25,646 nucleotides of DNA. Origin: an uncultured Nitrospirales bacterium. Its GTDB lineage: Bacteria; Hydrogenedentota; Hydrogenedentia; Hydrogenedentales; JAGMZX01. The stretch spans positions 1 to 25,646 of the forward strand of contig CAZMVU010000049.1 of the NCBI GenBank assembly GCA_964569295.1. The letters are read 5' to 3'. The stretch's first letter is position 1, and every line of letters begins with the position of its first letter. Positions 2,949 through 24,988 of the stretch are shown here, in pieces. The notes beneath the pieces are model-generated. The model made no database searches and had not been told where the DNA came from. It worked only from the letters and a program-made list of their open reading frames with translations. The position numbers and the translations under genes were made by a program.

Positions 2949-4121
2949 TCAGGCGAGAAGCTGGAAGGCGCGCGCGAGTTCGGCTTCGGTATTGTAGAAA
3001 TGCGGCGAGAAACGCAGGAACGCCTGTCCCGCGCGGTTTTTTCGAAGCGACACGGTGATCTTGTGGGCGTGCAGCTTTTCGTAGACGGCCTGCATGTCTT
3101 TGTCCGGGTGATGGATGCACACGATACTCGAGCGGTGTTTGTCCTCGGCATCCTCCCGCTGGTCCCAGTCTTCGAGGTAGAGCCGGTAACCCAGGGGGCG
3201 GACGTGGTCGAGGATGAACCGGCGCAGGTGAAGCAGCCGTTCACCGATGGCGTCGATGCCCAGTTCAAGCAGCAGATCGAAGGAGGCGGCCATGCCGAAG
3301 ATACCGGGGAAATTGAGCGCGCCGGTCTCGTAGCGGCGGCCGCCGGTCTGGTAGCCGATCTCGGTTTGCGCCACGAAATCCGGCGAAATGGTGTTCCATG
3401 AGCCGAGCAGCGCCGGCGGCAGCAATGCCTGCCGCGAGGCTTTGACATAAAAGATGCCCGCCCCGAGCGGCCCCAAGAGCCACTTGTGCGAGTCGGCGCT
3501 GAGGAAGTCCACATGGTCCACGGACACCGGAAACGCGCCGAGGGTCTGGATACCATCGAGGCAAAAGAGGATGCCGCGCTCGTGAAGGCGCCGGCCGATG
3601 TCGTCCACGTCGATCCGGAACCCGCTCATGAAGTGGCACGAGGCCAACGCGACGAGTCTGGTCTTCGGGGTGATCGCGCGCGCGACCACGTCCCAGGTAA
3701 TCGCGCCGGTATGTGCGGGCGCAAGCGGTACCGGTTTCACGCCCCGGCCGGTGAGACCGCTCCAGGGGTAGACATTCGCCGGGTAGTCGTCGGCGTAGTA
3801 GACCACCTCGTCGCCCGGTTCCCACGCGAGTCCGAGCGCGACGAGGTTCAGTCCATACGAGGTCGGACCGACGAGCGCAATCTCGGCCGCGGTGGCGCCG
3901 AGCATCCGTGCCGCGCTTTCCCGGCACGCCGCGTCGACCGCCCAGGTGGCGTCGTTCTCCTGGCTGTCGTGGGAGCCCAGCCGGCCAAATTCGGCCAGCG
4001 CATCCGCCGCGACACGCGGGAGCGGCGCCACGCCCGCATTGCCGAAAAACGCCCGCTCCTGCGCCACGGGAAACTCCCGCAACCGCACATTTTCGTTGTC
4101 GAGGATGTCATCGAGTTTCAT
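2949..4121 (-). CDS. class V aminotransferase-fold PLP enzyme (cysteine desulfurase / selenocysteine lyase / epimerase family)
   Basis: PLP-lysine motif SADSHKWLLGPLGAG and the overall fold-type I layout (390 aa). There is no long disordered N-terminal extension. Confidence 0.8.
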   Translation of the reverse strand: MKLDDILDNENVRLREFPVAQERAFFGNAGVAPLPRVAADALAEFGRLGSHDSQENDATWAVDAACRESAARMLGATAAEIALVGPTSYGLNLVALGLAWEPGDEVVYYADDYPANVYPWSGLTGRGVKPVPLAPAHTGAITWDVVARAITPKTRLVALASCHFMSGFRIDVDDIGRRLHERGILFCLDGIQTLGAFPVSVDHVDFLSADSHKWLLGPLGAGIFYVKASRQALLPPALLGSWNTISPDFVAQTEIGYQTGGRRYETGALNFPGIFGMAASFDLLLELGIDAIGERLLHLRRFILDHVRPLGYRLYLEDWDQREDAEDKHRSSIVCIHHPDKDMQAVYEKLHAHKITVSLRKNRAGQAFLRFSPHFYNTEAELARAFQLLA

Positions 4122-4187: not shown

Positions 4188-4484
4188 TTACCGCAGCACA
4201 TGTTCTTCGCGCATAACGTCGCTCTTGAGTTCCTCGATGCGCTCTTGCAACATGACGCCCATGGCGGTCCAACTGACGGCGCTCGCGTTCTCGACGCTCT
4301 GGTTGACCAGGCCCAACTCACGGCGGGCGGCCTCGAGCTGGGCAACACGTTGGCCAGTATCCAGGTGGCCCCGTTGCGCACGGGTGCGCAACTCTTCCAG
4401 GCGTGTGTCGATCTCGCCGATTTCCCGCTCCATTTCCGAGAGAAACGCCCATTTCCGGCTGGTGTCCATGTCCTCTTTACGCAT
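4188..4484 (-). CDS. small coiled-coil hypothetical protein (98 aa)
   Basis: The ORF is trimmed to the ATG that has a GGAGGG RBS 9 nt upstream. The sequence is rich in heptad-like E/R/L repeats. It lies 66 nt upstream of the aminotransferase on the same strand. Confidence 0.45.
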   Translation of the reverse strand: MRKEDMDTSRKWAFLSEMEREIGEIDTRLEELRTRAQRGHLDTGQRVAQLEAARRELGLVNQSVENASAVSWTAMGVMLQERIEELKSDVMREEHVLR

Positions 4485-4799
4485 CGGTGGCGACCCTCCA
4501 TCGGTTGCTGTAAATCGCACCCGCAACGCCCGCGCAACAAGGCGCCAGCCCTGCCAAGGTGTACGTTTGATTCTGGCCATGGCGGCACGCACAAAAGCAT
4601 CCCGTAGTAGTTTAACGCGCAGAAAACATGCCAGGGGGACATCCGTGACCACGAAGTTTTGTCTGTTCGTGTAAAGGGTTACACCGCCCCTGTTTACCGC
4701 CGCAACTGGCCACGGCCCCGCTCGCGGCACAACCTTGTCCTTGTATCGCAGGCATGCAGCGCGCTACAATTCTTCACAGGGATTGCATCTATTCGTTAC

Positions 4800-5010
4800 A
4801 TTGGCCGGACAATGGGTTAGGCGGCGGCCACTGGGTCCCTTGGGGCGAAGGGAGGATTCCCAGCGGCCACCGCCTGGTGCTCGCCGTAGATGGCGAGGCG
4901 TCGGGAGGACGGATTCCCGAGATCCGGCTGCGCAACACGAATGGGTTCGTGGGGTTGCGCGGGGAGCGAAGCGCCAAGCGGGGAGGGAGGGGCTTCGCTA
5001 TGTGGGATGA
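4800..5010. other. GC-rich, highly structured non-coding segment immediately 3' of the encapsulin gene (at least 4 consecutive hairpins and a G-tract/C-tract run)
   Basis: Hairpins read from the sequence: GGCGGCGGCCACTGGG/CCCAGCGGCCACCGCC (4820-4876) with a nested CCCTT/AAGGG stem; CTCGCC/GGCGAG (4881-4899); GCGCAAC/GTTGCGC (4930-4967); AGCGAAGC/GCTTCGCT (4966-4999) with a GGGGAGGGAGGGG loop. No ORF with plausible composition is present. Confidence 0.3.
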
Positions 5011-5038
5011 AGTGTCATCCGTGCCTTGCTGTGGCGCT

Positions 5039-5848
5039 TTACTTGGCCGTATAGACCACAGCGGCAGCCGGCTCCGGAATCCGGAAAGCCAGGGATTCTG
5101 TCAAGTATAGTTCCACGTTCTCCTTGTTGTGGCCGGCATAACCCATGGAAACATCCTGGCCCACGTGCAACTCGAAATCGCCGCCACGCAGGGACAGCAG
5201 CACGCCTCCCGCGAGCCCGGCGGACCAGACAAGTTTACCGCCCACCAAGTCGGACAACATCTGGTAGACCGGTTTACCGTAATTCATGATCTTGAGCAGT
5301 TTGTGGTAGAGGTTTTCCTCGAGCACGAGGGCATATGGGCCGCCGATGCCCGCAGCGTGCATGGCGCCCAGGCCTTTCGCGATTGCCTCGGGATATTCCG
5401 CCGCATCCTTTGGAAGCGGGATCGGCTCGTGGGTCGCGGTCTCGACGATCCCCTGCATGCCGGCGTCGGGGAAACCTTGGTACACGAGCCGATCCTCGAA
5501 GAGGGCGAACTCCCGCGCCGCCTCCGCGAGCGGGGCGAGATCGGCATCGGCGGCGCCCCGCGTGATATTGTCGATCTCGAACTGGTTCAGCGTAAACGGC
5601 GCGCGCACCTCGATGAGCGGCAGCACCGCGCGCTGCCCCCATCCGACGCCCGGCGTGGCCTTGTTGCCGGCCAAGTCGACCCGGCCCAGGTTCACCGCGG
5701 CGTACTCCCATCCGTGCGGCCCGGCGAAATCGACGAGCGTTCGGGCAGAGAGGAATGTCTTGAGCCAGCGGTTCGCCTCGTCTTCTATCTGTTCCCACGC
5801 CTTGGGGCTGAGCGGGGCGAGTTCTTTGCGAAGAATACCGGCAGTCAT
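5039..5848 (-). CDS. Family 1 encapsulin nanocompartment shell protein (HK97 fold)
   Basis: Clear collinear similarity to the T. maritima encapsulin (GPHGWEYAA, LPLIEVRAPFTL, RGGDFELHVGQDVSMGY, GPYALVLE). The start is trimmed to the ATG at 5848, which has an AAGGAG RBS 8 nt upstream. Confidence 0.9.
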   Translation of the reverse strand: MTAGILRKELAPLSPKAWEQIEDEANRWLKTFLSARTLVDFAGPHGWEYAAVNLGRVDLAGNKATPGVGWGQRAVLPLIEVRAPFTLNQFEIDNITRGAADADLAPLAEAAREFALFEDRLVYQGFPDAGMQGIVETATHEPIPLPKDAAEYPEAIAKGLGAMHAAGIGGPYALVLEENLYHKLLKIMNYGKPVYQMLSDLVGGKLVWSAGLAGGVLLSLRGGDFELHVGQDVSMGYAGHNKENVELYLTESLAFRIPEPAAAVVYTAK

Positions 5849-5887
5849 GATCGTTGTACTCCTTTCACGCATGGTACGTTCAACCGG

Positions 5888-6271
5888 TTAGCGCGTGAAT
5901 TTGTGGAATTTTCCAATGCCCAGGTCGCTGTCCGAGGCTGCCGCATCGCTGTTTGCCGCCCCGTCGCCACCCTGTTCCGCTTCGTCCTCGATCTCGGTGA
6001 TGGGCGCCGGGGTGAACAGGTATGTTTGAAGCTGTTCGGCAAATGTTGGCTCGTTGCGGCGAATCCACTCGAGCGTCATAGCCGCGTGCTCCATTTCCTC
6101 GTCGCGGTTGTGGCGCAGCACGTGCGCCATTTCTTCGTCGGCAGTCACATCGACCCGTTGCTGGTACCAGTCGACCGCTTCGATCTCTTCCACCAGGGTT
6201 GTGTAGGCCCGGTGCAATTCCCGCGTGCGCTGGCTCAGCTCCTGCGGCGGCTCGTGGTATTCAATGGTCAT
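5888..6271 (-). CDS. encapsulated ferritin-like protein (EncFtn) with a C-terminal encapsulin targeting peptide
   Basis: EncFtn core motifs EEIEAVDWYQQRVDV and HNRDEEMEHAAMTLEWIRRN. An acidic linker is followed by a C-terminal ...SDSDLGIGKFHKFTR tail matching the (S/D)LGIG(S/K)L cargo-loading peptide class. It sits directly upstream of the shell gene. Confidence 0.9.
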   Translation of the reverse strand: MTIEYHEPPQELSQRTRELHRAYTTLVEEIEAVDWYQQRVDVTADEEMAHVLRHNRDEEMEHAAMTLEWIRRNEPTFAEQLQTYLFTPAPITEIEDEAEQGGDGAANSDAAASDSDLGIGKFHKFTR

Positions 6272-7100
6272 GGGGTTCTTCTACCTTTTTGTGTCGATTG
6301 CGCGAGTGCAGGGAGGTGTACTCCACATCTTCCGCGATGGGCAACAGTTCGTCCCGTTCCAGCGACGTGACCGGCTGCTGCCGGCCGTAATAGTCGTACA
6401 GGGTCTGTTCGGCTTCCAAGCGCAGGGGCTGGGACGGGTCGAACGCCGGGTCGTCCTCGAGCGTGGGCGCACTTTCAATGACCGACCGGGGCAACGGAAT
6501 GTGAAGCTCTTTCAGGTCTGTCTCGATGTCCTGCACGCGGCTGCACGGAATGTAAACCCGGCGGCCGCTGAACCAGGTGCCGGTGTTGACGACGCCAAGA
6601 CGCAATGCGTATTCCTCGTTTTCGAACACAATGTCTTCGAGCCGGCCGAAGATGGCGTCCGCCCCGCGAATCCGGTAGCCCAGCAACTCGCAAAAACTGT
6701 ACAGATGATCGCCGGCCGCTTCGGGCGCGTGGTGCCGTTCGGGCAGCGTAACCGGCAAGAGCACGCCGGCCTGCGGCGCCACCATGGGCGCCCAGTGCAG
6801 CATGGACGCGGCGTCCTCGGGCACGTTGTCCGGCGCGACGCCCGCCTCCTCGAGGCCCGGCCGCGCCAGAATCTCCTGCTTGCTACAGGCCACAGGAAAG
6901 CGCTCCGCATTCCATTCCGGGGCGAGCAAGCCGCCGGTCTCGACCAGCACCTTACGCCCGGGCATAAGCGTGCCCGTTTCGGCCACGACATACAACACAC
7001 GCCAGCTATCGGCCTCGAAATAGAAGTCCGACACGGTGCCAACACGGCCGTCCTTCGCCTCGAGCGTGTAGCCGATAAGTCCTTTCAAGCCTCGTAACAC
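6261..7100 (-). CDS. tandem PRC-barrel domain protein, translationally coupled to EncFtn (GTG start)
   Basis: Two PRC-barrel signatures are present (LIGYTLEAKDGRVGTVSDFYFEA..., LLGYRIRGADAIFGRLEDIVFENE...). An AAGGAG RBS precedes the GTG. Its stop overlaps the EncFtn start in the sequence ATGACCATTGA (11-nt overlap). Confidence 0.75.
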   Translation of the reverse strand: MLRGLKGLIGYTLEAKDGRVGTVSDFYFEADSWRVLYVVAETGTLMPGRKVLVETGGLLAPEWNAERFPVACSKQEILARPGLEEAGVAPDNVPEDAASMLHWAPMVAPQAGVLLPVTLPERHHAPEAAGDHLYSFCELLGYRIRGADAIFGRLEDIVFENEEYALRLGVVNTGTWFSGRRVYIPCSRVQDIETDLKELHIPLPRSVIESAPTLEDDPAFDPSQPLRLEAEQTLYDYYGRQQPVTSLERDELLPIAEDVEYTSLHSRNRHKKVEEPHDH

Positions 7101-7267
7101 AGCAGGATCACTCCTTTCTCCATCGCCGTTTGCTCGTCAGATGCGTTCATTGTGCAAGGGCTGTGCCATCTCAGGTGGCATCGAAGCGCGCACCCCTCAC
7201 CCCGTTCTTGTGGGAGTTGGCCGGGAACGGGGGGACCGGCTCAGCCGGCCACAATGCGTATAGAATC

Positions 7268-7321: not shown

Positions 7322-7912
7322 CTATTCCGCGGGCGCCTCAGGCGGTGTTTCCTCGACATCCTCGTAGGCGCGGTTCACGGCCTTGCGCAGATCGTCATAG
7401 GCGTCGCGTACACCCTGGACAATCTCTTCCCAGGCTTCATCGCCGTTCTCGGTTACCCGCTGCATCTGCTCGGCGAGGGCCGCGCGCTTTTCTTCTATGG
7501 TTTCGAGCTGCTGCTGGAGTTGCTCCTTGGCCTGGCCTTGCATTTCACCGGTGCGGTCACGCAAGGCATCGACGCGATCGCCCATGGATTCGGTGCGCTG
7601 GGCCACGGCTTCCCGGAAATCCTGGCGCTGGGCCTTCGTATACTCCCAGAGGCTTTCCGCCGCCTTGGCCGCGTCCCGTTGCACATCCTCGGCGCTCGGC
7701 GCCGTCTCTTCCGGCGGCACAACCTCTTCGGGCTCGTCCTCGGGCGGTGGACTCACATCGGGCGGCGGCACGGTGTCCATCGGCCCCCCGACAGGCGGTT
7801 CCATCGGTTCCTCTTGCGGCGCTTCTTCGCCGCCACAAGCCATCAACCCCAATGCCAGCGCCATGCAGGCCCCGGCCACCATGGTCCCTGTCGTGATTCG
7901 CTTGCTGTTCAT
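7322..7912 (-). CDS. lipoprotein with a Glu/Pro-rich linker and a helical, acidic C-terminal domain
   Basis: Signal peptide MNSKRITTGTMVAGACMALALGLMAC with a lipobox. An AGGAGG RBS lies 9 nt upstream of the ATG at 7912. The PEEPMEPPVGGP low-complexity stretch is followed by a coiled-coil-like region. Confidence 0.6.
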   Translation of the reverse strand: MNSKRITTGTMVAGACMALALGLMACGGEEAPQEEPMEPPVGGPMDTVPPPDVSPPPEDEPEEVVPPEETAPSAEDVQRDAAKAAESLWEYTKAQRQDFREAVAQRTESMGDRVDALRDRTGEMQGQAKEQLQQQLETIEEKRAALAEQMQRVTENGDEAWEEIVQGVRDAYDDLRKAVNRAYEDVEETPPEAPAE

Positions 7913-8166
7913 GCGTCCAGTCCTCCTGTTAAGTAAGCCGGTTTTGCCGTCCATCCAACGTATCAACCGCAAAATGACTTTCATTTTTTTGGGGAGCGTC
8001 CATCCCGCCAGCGGGTACGCCCCACCGGGTTCGGAAACACCTTCTTTGGGCTACGTAAGTGCAAAAGTTGTGCCATAGCCCCGGCCCACGCCTGACCATG
8101 TGCCCCCGCCTGAATCCCGCAAACTGCACCTGATCCGGCATACCCAGCAAGCAACCGCAAATCGGC

Positions 8167-8207
8167 TTGACATTTCCGTGCGGTTATCATACTATACCGT
8201 ATGGTAT
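8167..8207 (+). promoter_or_regulatory. sigma70-type promoter (TTGACA-17-TACTAT) with an overlapping palindromic candidate operator ATACC-GTAT-GGTAT
   Basis: TTGACA at 8167-8172, a 17-nt spacer and TACTAT at 8190-8195. The inverted repeat at 8194-8207 overlaps the -10 box and +1. It lies 14 nt upstream of the TetR ATG. Confidence 0.5.
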
Positions 8208-8220
8208 GGAGACATCGAAG

Positions 8221-8754
8221 ATGACAGCGGCAAAACAGGCATGGCTCGATACGGGTCTGGCGCTGCTCGAGGAGCAGGGCCCCGGCGGGCTCACCATCGA
8301 TGAGCTCACACGCCGTCTGGGCCGGACAAAGGGCTCTTACTACCACCATTTCAAGAGCCGGGATGGGTTTGTGGACGCGCTGCTGCGGCATTGGGAAGAG
8401 GAGAACACGCAACGGATCATCCGGGAGGCGGAAGCCGCCGGCGAAGCCGAGGCGAAGAAGCGCCTTCTCACCCAGCTCACGCAGCCGCTGCACGAGTCCC
8501 GGATCGAGGTGCATATCCGTGCGTGGGCGCTGACGGAGAGCCGCGTGCGTGCGTATGTGGCGCGGGTTGACGAGGCGCGTATGGGGTATGTGCGCCGGAT
8601 AGCGGAAGTGGCGACGGGTGACCGGGATCGTGCTCAGGCCATCGCGCGGATTGTATACGCGGTATTCGTCGGTGCGCAGCAGGTGCTGCCGCCGATTAAA
8701 GGCAAAGAGCTTGTCCGCCTGTATGCGGATCTCGAACGGCTCTACGAACTGTAA
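8221..8754 (+). CDS. TetR/AcrR family transcriptional regulator
   Basis: N-terminal TetR HTH (LTIDELTRRLGRTKGSYYHHFKSRDGF). The start is set at the ATG with GGAG 9 nt upstream. Confidence 0.85.
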   Translation: MTAAKQAWLDTGLALLEEQGPGGLTIDELTRRLGRTKGSYYHHFKSRDGFVDALLRHWEEENTQRIIREAEAAGEAEAKKRLLTQLTQPLHESRIEVHIRAWALTESRVRAYVARVDEARMGYVRRIAEVATGDRDRAQAIARIVYAVFVGAQQVLPPIKGKELVRLYADLERLYEL

Positions 8755-8814
8755 CGAAACCTCAGGAACCGGGAAACGAGCGTGAGCGTCGGCACAACAG
8801 ACTATCGGAGGCTT

Positions 8815-10419
8815 ATGAGCGGCAACGAGGCCGTGGCGCTGGCCGCGTTACACGGCGGCGTGGCGCTGGGTACGGGCTATCCCGGCACCCCCTCGACAGA
8901 AATCCTCGAGCACCTCAGCGCCTATGGCGGGCGCGCCCAGTGGGCGCCGAACGAGAAGGTGGCCCTCGAGGTGGGTATTGGTGCCGCGTTCGCCGGTGTG
9001 CGTGTGCTGGTGACAATGAAACACGTGGGCGTAAACGTGGCGGCGGACCCCTTCTTTTCCGTGGCCTACACGGGCGTCGACGGCGCCTTGGTTATCGTAT
9101 CGGCCGACGATCCGGGCATGCACTCGAGCCAGAACGAGCAGGACAACCGCCGCTTTGCCCTGGCGGCCGGCATGGTCATGTTCGAGCCGGCCGACGCGCA
9201 AGACGCCTATGATTTTACCCGTGCGGCCTTTGCCTTTTCAGAGGCCTGGAACCTGCCGGTGATGCTGCGCATGACCACCCGGGTGTGCCATTCACAGGGC
9301 GTGGTGCGGCCAGCCGTGCCAGACACGGTAAAGACCTCCTCCGGCTTCAAGCGCCATATTCCGGGGCGTGTGATGATCCCCGGTCATGCGCGCCACGCCC
9401 ACCGCCAGTTGCGCGCTAAACTCGAAGACGTACGCGCCTGGAGTGAAAACGAGGCACTGCACCGGGAAGAGACGGGCAGTCCAACCCTCGGGATCATCAC
9501 CGCGGGTGTGGCCTACCTGCACGCCCGGGAAGCGGCGCCGGAGGCCAGCCTGCTCAAACTCGCCATGACCCACCCGTTGCCACTCGCGCACATCCGCAAG
9601 TTCGCGGAAAGCGTCGACCGCTGCATGGTTATAGAAGAAGGCGACCCGTACCTCGTCGAGCAGTTGTGTGCGGCGGGCATTGCGGTCACAGGCAAGCCCG
9701 CGCGCTACCGCCTCGGCGAATTGAACGTGCCCCGGGTACGCCGGATTCTCGCCGGCGACGACTCGGAAGAACCCGCGCCGCCGCGCGGCAAGCTGCCCCA
9801 GCTTTGTGTGGGCTGTCCGCACCGGGGCGCTTTCGCGGTGACCAAACGGCTCGGGTGCATCGTGTCGGGTGACATTGGCTGCTACACGCTGGCCGCGCTG
9901 CCGCCTTTCGAGGCGATGGACAGCCAGTTGTGCATGGGCGCCAGCATCGGCATCGGTCTGGGCCTGCGCCACACGCTCCCGGAAGAGGCGGCGCGCCGTG
10001 TGGTGTCCGTCATCGGGGACAGCACGTTCATGCACTCGGGCCTCACCGGCCTCGCCGAGATGGTGTACAACCCGCCGTCCACTGGCCATATTGTGCTTGT
10101 ACTCGACAATGGCACCACCGCCATGACCGGTATGCAGGAACATCCGGGCACCGGCCGCAGCCTGGACCACCGCCGTGCAGGACGTGTGTCGTTCGAGGAT
10201 GTGGCCCGCGCTATGGGCGTGGGAAACGTGTGCGTGGCGGAGACCACGAAAGAACTCGCGCAAACGCTTACGACCGCCCTCGAACACAACGGCCTTACCT
10301 TCATCGTATTTCGCCATCCCTGCCGGCTCGCGAAACCGCGGATCGAGGCGTGGGAAGCGCAGGCCGCTGGCGAAACAGCGGCGGTGGCGCCGTCCACGGA
10401 GGCCTGCTGCCATGACTGA
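8815..10419 (+). CDS. iorA: indolepyruvate:ferredoxin oxidoreductase alpha subunit (TPP-dependent)
   Basis: LMSGNEAVALAALHGGV N-terminal motif and a CVGCPHRG ... GDIGCYTL TPP/cluster region. An alternative GTG start at 8782 is possible. Confidence 0.8.
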   Translation: MSGNEAVALAALHGGVALGTGYPGTPSTEILEHLSAYGGRAQWAPNEKVALEVGIGAAFAGVRVLVTMKHVGVNVAADPFFSVAYTGVDGALVIVSADDPGMHSSQNEQDNRRFALAAGMVMFEPADAQDAYDFTRAAFAFSEAWNLPVMLRMTTRVCHSQGVVRPAVPDTVKTSSGFKRHIPGRVMIPGHARHAHRQLRAKLEDVRAWSENEALHREETGSPTLGIITAGVAYLHAREAAPEASLLKLAMTHPLPLAHIRKFAESVDRCMVIEEGDPYLVEQLCAAGIAVTGKPARYRLGELNVPRVRRILAGDDSEEPAPPRGKLPQLCVGCPHRGAFAVTKRLGCIVSGDIGCYTLAALPPFEAMDSQLCMGASIGIGLGLRHTLPEEAARRVVSVIGDSTFMHSGLTGLAEMVYNPPSTGHIVLVLDNGTTAMTGMQEHPGTGRSLDHRRAGRVSFEDVARAMGVGNVCVAETTKELAQTLTTALEHNGLTFIVFRHPCRLAKPRIEAWEAQAAGETAAVAPSTEACCHD

Positions 10420-10963
10420 GCACGGCCGCACCACGAACATCGTCTTCGCCGGACTGGGCGGTACCGGCGTTATCCGCGCCTCTGACATTATGGCGGGAGC
10501 GGCCTTCCGCACCGGCTGCGACGTGAAGAAAAGTGAAGTGCACGGCATGAGCCAGCGGGGCGGCTCCGTCACGAGCGATGTACGTTTCGGCGCGCAGGTC
10601 CTCAGTCCGATGACGCCCGCGGGTGAGGCGGATTTCCTGGTGGTGTTGCATGCGGCGCAGGTCGAGGTGGTCCGCCATTACCTGGCGCCGGACGGCGTGC
10701 TGATAACGACGGATGTGTTGTTTGCGCCCGAAGCCGGTCCCAAGACGCTCGACGACGATCCGGCCACGCCGGTGACCAGCCGGAATTACAACGTGGCCTT
10801 GCTCGGCCTCTTGAGCACATACCTTGCTATCGGCAATCCCGCCTGGCACGCGGCCATTCAAGCCGCTCTTCCCGAAAAGGTGCAGGCGCAGAACGTCGCG
10901 GTATTCACCTTCGGGCAAACATTACGCGCCATGGCGGAAACCCGGGCGGGGGAAGGCGTATGA
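10412..10963 (+). CDS. iorB: indolepyruvate:ferredoxin oxidoreductase beta subunit
   Basis: NIVFAGLGGTGV ... GMSQRGGSV, a pyruvate/ketoisovalerate oxidoreductase gamma-like fold. There is an 8-nt start/stop overlap with iorA. Confidence 0.8.
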   Translation: MTEHGRTTNIVFAGLGGTGVIRASDIMAGAAFRTGCDVKKSEVHGMSQRGGSVTSDVRFGAQVLSPMTPAGEADFLVVLHAAQVEVVRHYLAPDGVLITTDVLFAPEAGPKTLDDDPATPVTSRNYNVALLGLLSTYLAIGNPAWHAAIQAALPEKVQAQNVAVFTFGQTLRAMAETRAGEGV

Positions 10964-12294
10964 GCCAGTTCTGGCACGATAGCGGCGGCACGTTTCATCC
11001 CGTGAGCGCCGTGGACTTTCTGCCGGCGGCGCAATTGCGCGAATTGCAGTTGCACCGGCTTCAGGCGGTGGTGCGCCGCGCCTATGAGCAGGTGGCGTTG
11101 TTCCGGGCGCGCATGGACGAGCGCGGCCTGCATCCCGGCGATGTGCACCGTCTCGCGGATCTCGGCAAGCTGCCGTTCACGCTCAAGAGCGATCTGCGCG
11201 ACACGTATCCCTTTGGGCTGTTCGCCAGCCCCATGAGCGAGATCGTGCGGCTCCATGCGTCCTCCGGCACGACGGGCAAGCCCATCGTGGTGGCGTATAC
11301 GCACGCGGACCTCGCGGTATGGTCAAGCGTGATGGTGCGCGCCTTCGCGGCCTACGGCCTTAAAGATGGGGACATCATACAAAACGCCTACGGCTACGGC
11401 CTGTTTACCGGCGGCCTGGGTGCGCACTACGGTGCGGAAGCGCTCGGCGCGACGGTGATCCCCATCTCCGGCGGCAATACGGATCGCCAGCTCATGGTGA
11501 TGAAAGACTTCAATGTGACCGCCGTATGCACAACACCGAGCTACTTCCTGCGGCTCATCGACCGCGCGCAAGAGCTCGGCATGGATCTGCGCGCCATGCC
11601 GGTGAAGGTGGGTGTATTCGGCGCGGAGCCGTGGACCCACGGGATGCGCCAGCGCATCGAGGCGGAGGCGGGCATCACCGCGTTCGACATCTATGGACTG
11701 TCCGAGATCGTCGGCCCGGGTGTCGGTGCGGAATGCGCGTATCAAAACGGGCTCCACATTTTCGAAGATCACTTCTACCCCGAGATCATCGATCCGGACA
11801 CCGGGGCGGTACTGCCCGACGGCGAGGAAGGCGAACTGGTCTTCACCACCCTGTCGAAGCAGGCCATGCCCATGATCCGCTACCGCACGCGCGACATCAC
11901 GGCGCTCGTGAACGCCCCGTGCGCGTGCGGCCGCAGCATCCGCCGCATCAAGCGCATCGCACGCCGCAGCGACGACATGATCATCATCCGGGGCGTGAAT
12001 GTCTTCCCTTCGCAGGTCGAAGCGGCGCTGCTGGCGGTCGATGGCACGCTCCCGCATTACCAGATCGTGCTGACCAACGACGGCACACTCGACCAGATGG
12101 AAGTGCAGGTCGAGGTGACGCCGAAGGTCTTCAGCGACCGCGTGGGCGCGCTCGAAAACCTCCAGGAGACCCTGGCCCAGGCGATCGAGCGCATTCTGAA
12201 TATCCGCGTGCACCTGCGGCTGGTCGAGCCGAACACCATCGCGCGGTCGGAAGGCAAGGCCAAACGCGTCATAGACAAGCGCCCGAAGGACTGA
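10960..12294 (+). CDS. paaK: phenylacetate-CoA ligase (arylacetate-CoA ligase)
   Basis: AMP-binding motif SSGTTGKP, a PaaK-type N-terminus and a length of 444 aa. There is an ATGA overlap with iorB. Confidence 0.85.
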   Translation: MSQFWHDSGGTFHPVSAVDFLPAAQLRELQLHRLQAVVRRAYEQVALFRARMDERGLHPGDVHRLADLGKLPFTLKSDLRDTYPFGLFASPMSEIVRLHASSGTTGKPIVVAYTHADLAVWSSVMVRAFAAYGLKDGDIIQNAYGYGLFTGGLGAHYGAEALGATVIPISGGNTDRQLMVMKDFNVTAVCTTPSYFLRLIDRAQELGMDLRAMPVKVGVFGAEPWTHGMRQRIEAEAGITAFDIYGLSEIVGPGVGAECAYQNGLHIFEDHFYPEIIDPDTGAVLPDGEEGELVFTTLSKQAMPMIRYRTRDITALVNAPCACGRSIRRIKRIARRSDDMIIIRGVNVFPSQVEAALLAVDGTLPHYQIVLTNDGTLDQMEVQVEVTPKVFSDRVGALENLQETLAQAIERILNIRVHLRLVEPNTIARSEGKAKRVIDKRPKD

Positions 12295-24910: not shown

Positions 24911-24988
24911 GACCCCATCGTCTAGCCTGGTCTAGGACACCGGCCTTTCACGCCGGCAACACGGGTTCAAATCCCGTTGGGGTCGCCA
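24911..24988 (+). tRNA. tRNA-Glu (anticodon UUC), CCA encoded
   Basis: Manual fold: 7-bp acceptor stem GACCCCA/TGGGGTC; U8; D stem GTCT/GGAC; anticodon stem CCGGC/GCCGG with loop CTTTCAC; T stem ACGGG/CCCGT with loop TTCAAAT; discriminator G followed by CCA. Closely resembles E. coli tRNA-Glu. Confidence 0.85.

Follow-up and report, generated by a model that had tools for sequence, protein, structure and literature searches.

Organisation of the encapsulin locus

Here we describe an encapsulin locus of an uncultured Hydrogenedentota bacterium, carried on contig CAZMVU010000049.1 (25,646 nt; the whole of this stretch is referred to below as the window). Three genes follow one another on its minus strand: a tandem PRC-barrel gene (6261..7100, 279 aa), a gene for an encapsulated ferritin-like (EncFtn) cargo protein (5888..6271, 127 aa) and a gene for a family-1 encapsulin shell (5039..5848, 269 aa). 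An earlier note, made from the sequence alone, had placed the three genes at these positions, and both our reading of the open reading frames (ORFs) and the profile matches agree with it. The PRC gene begins with a GTG at 7100, preceded by GGAG 10 nt upstream, and overlaps the EncFtn gene by 11 nt (ATGACCATTGA, 6261..6271, minus strand, read from the sequence). Within this overlap the PRC stop codon TGA occupies 6263-6261 and the EncFtn ATG lies at 6271, the TGA being built from the conserved EncFtn codons ATT-GAA (Ile3-Glu4). The Shine-Dalgarno-like sequence of EncFtn is weak and is located within the region coding for the tail of the PRC protein, and no mRNA structure that sequesters the EncFtn start was found (z = 0.2). 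A further 39 nt separate the end of EncFtn from the shell ATG, for which we prefer position 5848 to the longer ORF from 5872 because AGGAG precedes ATG 5848 by ∼10 nt.

On their profile and structure matches, EncFtn and the shell can be classed as a textbook family-1 iron nanocompartment pair, as the earlier note had recognised. EncFtn matches PF22277 (E 3e-38; 129.8 bits, cutoff 27) and TIGR04535 (141.5 bits, cutoff 125), and aligns end to end with solved encapsulated ferritin structures (E 1e-36), such that its C-terminal DLGIGKF falls on SLGIGSL, the localisation sequence in a structure of this kind. Residues E29, E59 and H62 are invariant across 32 EncFtn sequences (alignment A3), the numbering of the window protein being offset by −3 relative to 5da5. 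We take the ferroxidase-centre residues of Rhodospirillum rubrum EncFtn to be E32, E62 and H65, and the predicted Glu/Glu/His ferroxidase centre is present in the window protein. The shell matches NF041155, the family 1 encapsulin model (E 3e-87, 292 bits against a cutoff of 100), and PF04454 (E 4e-84, 282 bits), and among solved structures it is closest to T=1 family-1 shells (E 1e-66).

Conservation of the gene arrangement and its promoter

The 279-aa PRC gene and the same 11-nt overlap with EncFtn are found in three related contigs, L007 (from JGI, the Joint Genome Institute), L008 (GCA_015657915.1) and L089 (GCA_964473945.1), the last of which carries all three genes. Across the four loci the synonymous divergence (dS) of the PRC gene is ∼1 between three sub-lineages, with a ratio of non-synonymous to synonymous divergence (dN/dS) of 0.15-0.17, and the C-terminal tail of the protein is conserved to the same degree as the barrels (78%). 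An identical length and overlap at this level of divergence, combined with such a low dN/dS, indicate that the gene is genuine and under selection and that its arrangement is maintained. The tight coupling of PRC and EncFtn pointed out in the earlier note is thereby extended to the whole clade. Substitution is not even along the genes: between the window and L007, dS is ∼0.98 for PRC and ∼0.32 for the adjacent EncFtn, and over its final 150 nt the PRC gene has 87% column identity compared with 75-77% for the gene as a whole. Codon bias or a constraint on translation initiation could produce this shift, as could a recombination boundary located within PRC.

A sigma-54-type −24/−12 element (TGGCACagcccTTGCA, 7153..7168, minus strand) lies upstream of the operon, 52 nt 5′ of the PRC start codon. 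It is an exact TGGCAC-N5-TTGCA and satisfies the −24 GG/−12 GC consensus TGGCAC-N5-TTGCW. The exact string occurs twice in the window, compared with 0.04 expected matches, and none of 100 shuffles reached two. The element 5′ of the PRC gene is kept in the clade, exactly in L089 and as GGGCACggggcTTGCA (GGGCAC-N5-TTGCA) in L007. In L090, the nearest of the relatives without a PRC gene, a similar element, cGGCACagttcTTGCG (CGGCAC-N5-TTGCG), is positioned 55 nt 5′ of EncFtn itself. Since the PRC gene lies between the promoter and the cargo gene, it probably forms the operon's first cistron. Sigma-70 promoter and terminator scans of the operon returned nothing exceeding shuffle expectation.

The PRC protein is a divergent member of a widespread family

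Profile and structure predictions agree that the 279-aa protein contains two PRC-barrel domains, which the earlier note had read from the sequence. It matches PF05239 in two stretches (40.1 bits, cutoff 21.2; E 3.7e-10), and can be divided into a first barrel (residues ∼1-88), a linker (93-130), a second barrel (131-215), a YDYYGR motif (235-240) and a clade-specific tail (∼244-279). In the AlphaFold (AF2) model the predicted local distance difference test score (pLDDT) exceeds 90 in both barrels and averages 73 overall, with the linker (93-130) and the stretch 239-268 in the tail region disordered. Foldseek places the tandem-PRC proteins CdpB1/CdpB2 of cell division (8qzo, E 3e-9) first, followed by reaction-centre H (RC-H) subunits, and also matches 3htr. 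Reading of the sequence found no targeting motif of the LGIG or LxIGxL type at either terminus (the tail ends …DELLPIAEDVEYTSLHSRNRHKKVEEPHDH / …LLPIAEDVEYTSLHSRNRHKKVEEPHDH), and the statement in the earlier note that the protein has no targeting peptide is borne out.

Over residues 1-242 the protein is homologous to a family of tandem-PRC proteins of ∼245 aa (E 1e-34 to 1e-42) that comprises at least 1820 clusters at 90% identity, or 2078 clusters at 50% identity with E<=1e-10, and is found in Planctomycetota, Chloroflexota, KSB1, Deltaproteobacteria and others. Within this family the window clade forms an isolated branch, the next-best library match being 32% identical. The signature residues of the family are poorly retained: of 93 near-invariant positions, the members of the clade keep 49-51 (the window protein 49), whereas typical members keep at least 72, with a median of 90. 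The first YGWPxYW motif is missing, GRPxYW is changed to GRQQPV, and the added tail of ∼35 aa is covered by none of the best 150 of 4643 library matches. We therefore regard the window protein, judged by its alignments, as a highly derived member of the tandem-PRC family. The PRC stop codon, being built from EncFtn codons, would fit an origin of the tail by extension of the PRC reading frame into the old EncFtn leader.

Scanning metagenomes with A2, an alignment specific to the PRC proteins of the clade, yielded no confirmed relative. The best library matches outside the clade are P0251, which has four barrels by duplication and is encoded beside a further PRC gene but no encapsulin, and P0252, which lies on an uninformative 1-kb contig. 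Typical tandem-PRC genes are accompanied by BON-domain genes, lie behind an extracytoplasmic function (ECF) sigma-factor gene or are duplicated. Adjacent duplicates are frequent (L006 5589-9866, L085 6922-8934 and L175 1907-4379); the L006 genes are situated among BON-domain genes, and those of L085 directly behind an ECF sigma-factor gene. Such BON-domain and ECF-sigma contexts fit membership of a stress regulon, and PRC-barrel proteins are among the members of the general stress regulons of EcfG and RpoE2, as well as of stress-related sets in cyanobacteria (PMC6599016, PMC6180224, PMC7660261).

Distribution of PRC genes at EncFtn loci

The next-closest EncFtn operons, L090, L091 and L093, encode EncFtn proteins 68-73% identical to that of the window and are PRC-less. 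The slot upstream of EncFtn is occupied in L090 by an unrelated 131-aa coiled-coil gene, and in L091 and L093 by a sigma-54 activator gene that adjoins EncFtn. The shell and EncFtn proteins of L090 have the same lengths as those of the window (269 and 127 aa), so there is no obvious compensating insertion in either partner where the PRC gene is present. The activator directly 5′ of EncFtn and shell is a 300-aa protein with an AAA+ domain and HTH_8 (L091 3983-4885; L093 1699-2601); no obvious sensor domain was seen in either activator, and no canonical −24/−12 element was found in the short gap 5′ of EncFtn in these two loci. We also considered whether a sigma-54-type element 5′ of EncFtn is a general feature, and rejected this possibility, as such elements were present at 4 of 158 loci compared with one in the opposite-strand control.

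For a broader view we surveyed 160 diverse EncFtn loci, of which 80 came from GTDB species genomes and 80 from JGI metagenomes, amounting to 1.09 Mb, by screening six-frame ORFs with a hidden Markov model (HMM) of the tandem-PRC family. Tandem-PRC genes were found at two of the 160 loci, L085 and L129, and just one of the 97 loci with a shell (L129) has the gene upstream of EncFtn on the same strand. The L085 gene lies 1.6 kb away on the opposite strand, behind an ECF sigma gene, and its product keeps 77 of the 93 near-invariant positions; the EncFtn-like protein of this locus (5001-5300) lacks a targeting peptide, and the locus has no shell gene. Where ordinary tandem-PRC genes could be viewed in context (L001, L002-5, L006 and L175), they were never beside a shell. 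In the neighbourhood tables of Andreas & Giessen 2021 (PMC8346489), PF05239 is listed solely at positions −9/−10 in two Tindallia genomes, and we found no literature that couples PRC-barrel proteins with encapsulins. The view of the earlier note that PRC-barrel proteins have no recognised place in encapsulin systems is thus upheld, and the gene does not belong to the general make-up of such systems: it is present in all four loci of one narrow lineage and does not recur with encapsulins across lineages. The earlier note had gone on to propose a functional partner on the strength of the coupling; taken as a partner of encapsulins in general, this is not supported, and the lack of enrichment beside encapsulin loci that it would have counted against itself is largely what we observe outside the clade. 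As a separate observation, 63 of the 160 loci (∼40%; sets L009-L088 and L094-L173) have no shell gene in their flanks, and many of these encode proteins of ∼90-99 aa without a targeting peptide, which are stand-alone EncFtn-like proteins comparable to PDB 3k6c (NE0167).

The second case of a PRC gene ahead of EncFtn and shell, L129, warrants closer description. Its PRC gene precedes EncFtn and the shell on the same strand, at a distance of 304 nt. The L129 PRC protein scores 99.7 bits against the window protein in phmmer, ranking 278th of 281 family members, and ranks 273rd with the clade HMM; its own best matches are ordinary family members. It keeps 55 of the 93 near-invariant positions. The L129 shell is 39% identical to the window shell (rank 69 of 81). 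Neighbour-joining placed the L129 PRC protein as sister of the window clade with 93% bootstrap support, a placement that we rejected as long-branch attraction because of the low phmmer and HMM ranks and the dissimilarity of the shells. The low similarity of both proteins leads us to regard L129 as an independent juxtaposition. With a background of about one PRC locus per Mb surveyed, a rough chance estimate for a PRC gene in a 1-kb same-strand upstream slot is ∼0.1 over 160 loci. L129 also carries two sigma-54-like elements, TGGCACgattcCTGCA (2846-2861) and cGGCAAgactcTTGCA (3925-3940), one before the PRC gene and one before EncFtn.

Interpretation

We consider it probable that the PRC gene represents a lineage-specific capture into a sigma-54-controlled operon, and that its product, a protein-binding accessory or stress protein, is co-expressed with a standard iron compartment and functions on the outside of it. 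EncFtn and the shell would form a standard iron-oxidising and iron-mineralising nanocompartment, with EncFtn decamers entering a probably T=1 shell by means of the C-terminal LGIGKF peptide. A copy of the widespread ∼245-aa tandem-PRC gene would have landed between the sigma-54 promoter and EncFtn, diverged strongly and gained its C-terminal extension of ∼35 aa, its frame coming to end at the TGA supplied by EncFtn codons 3-4. From its position behind the promoter and the location of this TGA, the gene is expected to be co-transcribed with the cargo and is probably translationally coupled to it. The PRC protein would then be made with the compartment when the sigma-54 activator fires, and would be a cytoplasmic protein located outside the shell.

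Several points weigh against this account. The 25.6-kb window contains neither rpoN nor a sigma-54 activator gene. The stress label derives from gene context and from the general PRC-barrel literature, not from work on this family, and our survey is a sample and not a census of EncFtn loci. Purifying selection, a tail conserved in the clade and a retained overlap would be expected equally of a dedicated partner of the compartment. L129 hints at a recurrent functional link between PRC and EncFtn, which we treat as suggestive only, and the derived state of both EncFtn-upstream PRC proteins would fit repeated re-purposing, there being two cases.

The main alternative, a dedicated partner as raised in the earlier note, is that the derived PRC protein binds the shell exterior or EncFtn, for example through its tail or linker, and serves as an assembly factor or as an adaptor for iron delivery or release or for anchoring. 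We regard this explanation, and with it a physical partnership with the shell, as doubtful but the most serious of the alternatives. It would account for an overlap and operon position kept at dS ∼1 with a dN/dS of 0.15 and for a conserved tail that is exclusive to the linked clade, and the loss of ∼45% of the family-invariant residues fits a change of function; it also gains from the independent and likewise derived L129 protein upstream of EncFtn, and from the character of PRC barrels as protein-binding and oligomerising modules, the best structural match being CdpB1/CdpB2. Against this, the gene is missing from the nearest relatives and from 96 of the 97 shell-containing EncFtn loci surveyed, the L129 PRC protein is not specifically related and is paired with a distant shell, the lengths of shell and EncFtn are unchanged relative to PRC-less L090, and PRC does not appear as an operon neighbour in the 2021 census. 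A more specific form of the idea, in which the derived protein is an unrecognised external accessory of EncFtn-encapsulins (an adaptor, iron-handling or assembly factor) that docks by the clade tail, with L129 as a second, convergent recruitment, seems to us rather unlikely.

We find it very improbable that the PRC protein is a non-canonical cargo whose disordered tail or linker holds a so far unrecognised signal for encapsulation. The tail of ∼35 aa is indeed disordered and conserved, the gene adjoins the cargo gene, and family-1 genes directly 5′ of the shell usually encode cargo (PMC8346489), but the tail has no Gly-rich LxIGxL-type motif of the kind seen on EncFtn, it is not obvious what a two-barrel protein of 31 kDa, for which no catalytic function is known, would do inside the shell, and the tandem-PRC family is otherwise unlinked to encapsulins. 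Equally little credence can be given to the notion that the PRC ORF is mainly a translational device that feeds ribosomes to the weak EncFtn start and sets cargo stoichiometry, its product mattering little. The conserved overlap, the siting of the weak Shine-Dalgarno-like sequence within the tail-coding region and the raised nucleotide identity of the last 150 nt all fit a function of this type; however, purifying selection acts at the protein level across all 279 aa, both barrels included, no mRNA structure hides the EncFtn start, and the PRC-less relatives express EncFtn without such an ORF. Finally, a chance or decaying juxtaposition, in which the gene is an unrelated passenger or an annotation artefact, has the narrow phylogenetic distribution in its favour, together with the occasional adjacency to be expected of so abundant a family, but is scarcely credible for an intact ORF of the same length in four loci at dS ∼1 under purifying selection, with the promoter upstream of the PRC gene and not between PRC and EncFtn, and with the Pfam matches and confident fold of a real protein.

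As matters stand, the association is too narrow to alter the general picture of encapsulin systems. The finding is more ordinary than the earlier note judged, yet it is not trivial. The 2021 census names no external partners that bind the shell among the operon components of family-1 EncFtn systems, and it records little on how these compartments are regulated (PMC8346489). Should the PRC protein bind the compartment, it would provide a first handle on the positioning, assembly or emptying of the compartment; even without binding, the locus would be a clean natural example of an encapsulin operon under a sigma-54-type promoter that has been extended by gene capture. The four sequenced variants constitute a ready test set for co-expression.

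Comparison with known systems

Classical family-1 systems with EncFtn/Flp cargo, such as those of R. rubrum (Rru_A0973/A0974) and Haliangium ochraceum (EncFtn-Enc), share with the window the order of cargo followed by shell, the EncFtn fold, the ferroxidase residues, the C-terminal LGIG-type peptide and a predicted T=1-type shell of ∼269 aa. The window differs in its additional tandem-PRC first cistron overlapping the cargo start and in the sigma-54-type promoter upstream, neither of which has been described for these model systems. Family-1 operons are known to include accessory genes other than cargo, such as the ferredoxin of IMEF systems and the oxidoreductases, cupins and DUF1345 proteins of DyP operons (PMC8346489). 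The PRC gene resembles these in being a co-oriented operon gene without a targeting peptide and with an unknown or supporting role, but whereas such accessories recur across many operons of one type, the PRC gene is restricted to one narrow clade and one unrelated locus.

Compared with the tandem PRC-barrel proteins of ∼245 aa, which carry labels such as YrrD, YlmC or YsnF-like, the window protein has the same two barrels and linker, the N-terminal MLR and the C-terminal YDYYGR, and is set apart by its loss of YGWPxYW and of ∼45% of the near-invariant residues, by the added tail and by its link to an encapsulin. The archaeal CdpB1/CdpB2 proteins (PDB 8qzo) have the same tandem PRC architecture, with a template modelling (TM) score of 0.7-0.79 on the target. 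Their sequence identity to the window protein is 9-10% and their context is archaeal cell division, and the likeness is one of fold only.

Neighbouring genes

Downstream of the shell gene, after a gap of 308 nt, lies a coiled-coil ORF of 180 aa (4188..4730, minus strand) that has no Pfam match and is unassigned to a family. It has 74% tblastn identity to a match in L089 that likewise lies downstream of the shell and is split over two reading frames. This ORF may be part of the same gene cluster, its membership of the operon being uncertain. Further downstream on the same strand is a class-V aminotransferase or cysteine-desulfurase-like gene (2949..4121, minus strand), which we considered as a cargo of the family-2A encapsulin type and rejected, since its match to the family-2A cargo model is weak (69 bits against a cutoff of 800). 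In divergent orientation on the plus strand, positions 8167..12294 encode a TetR regulator, followed by an indolepyruvate/pyruvate ferredoxin oxidoreductase-like thiamine pyrophosphate (TPP) enzyme and a PaaK-like AMP ligase. A scan for known RNA families gave a single match, a distant tRNA, and a tRNA gene is located at 24911..24985 (plus strand) near the contig end.

Upstream of the PRC gene, and forming a separate transcription unit, is a gene for an sll1863-family stress lipoprotein-like product (7322..7984, minus strand; NF052504, E 1e-12, above cutoff). The second exact sigma-54-type element of the window (TGGCACaacttTTGCA, 8060..8075, minus strand) lies 5′ of this gene. In L007 and in PRC-less L090, too, the EncFtn operon is flanked by a homologue of this gene, which in L090 is preceded by the element cGGCATagtgcTTGCT. 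This recurrent pairing suggests that the sll1863-family gene and the EncFtn operon may belong to a shared regulon.

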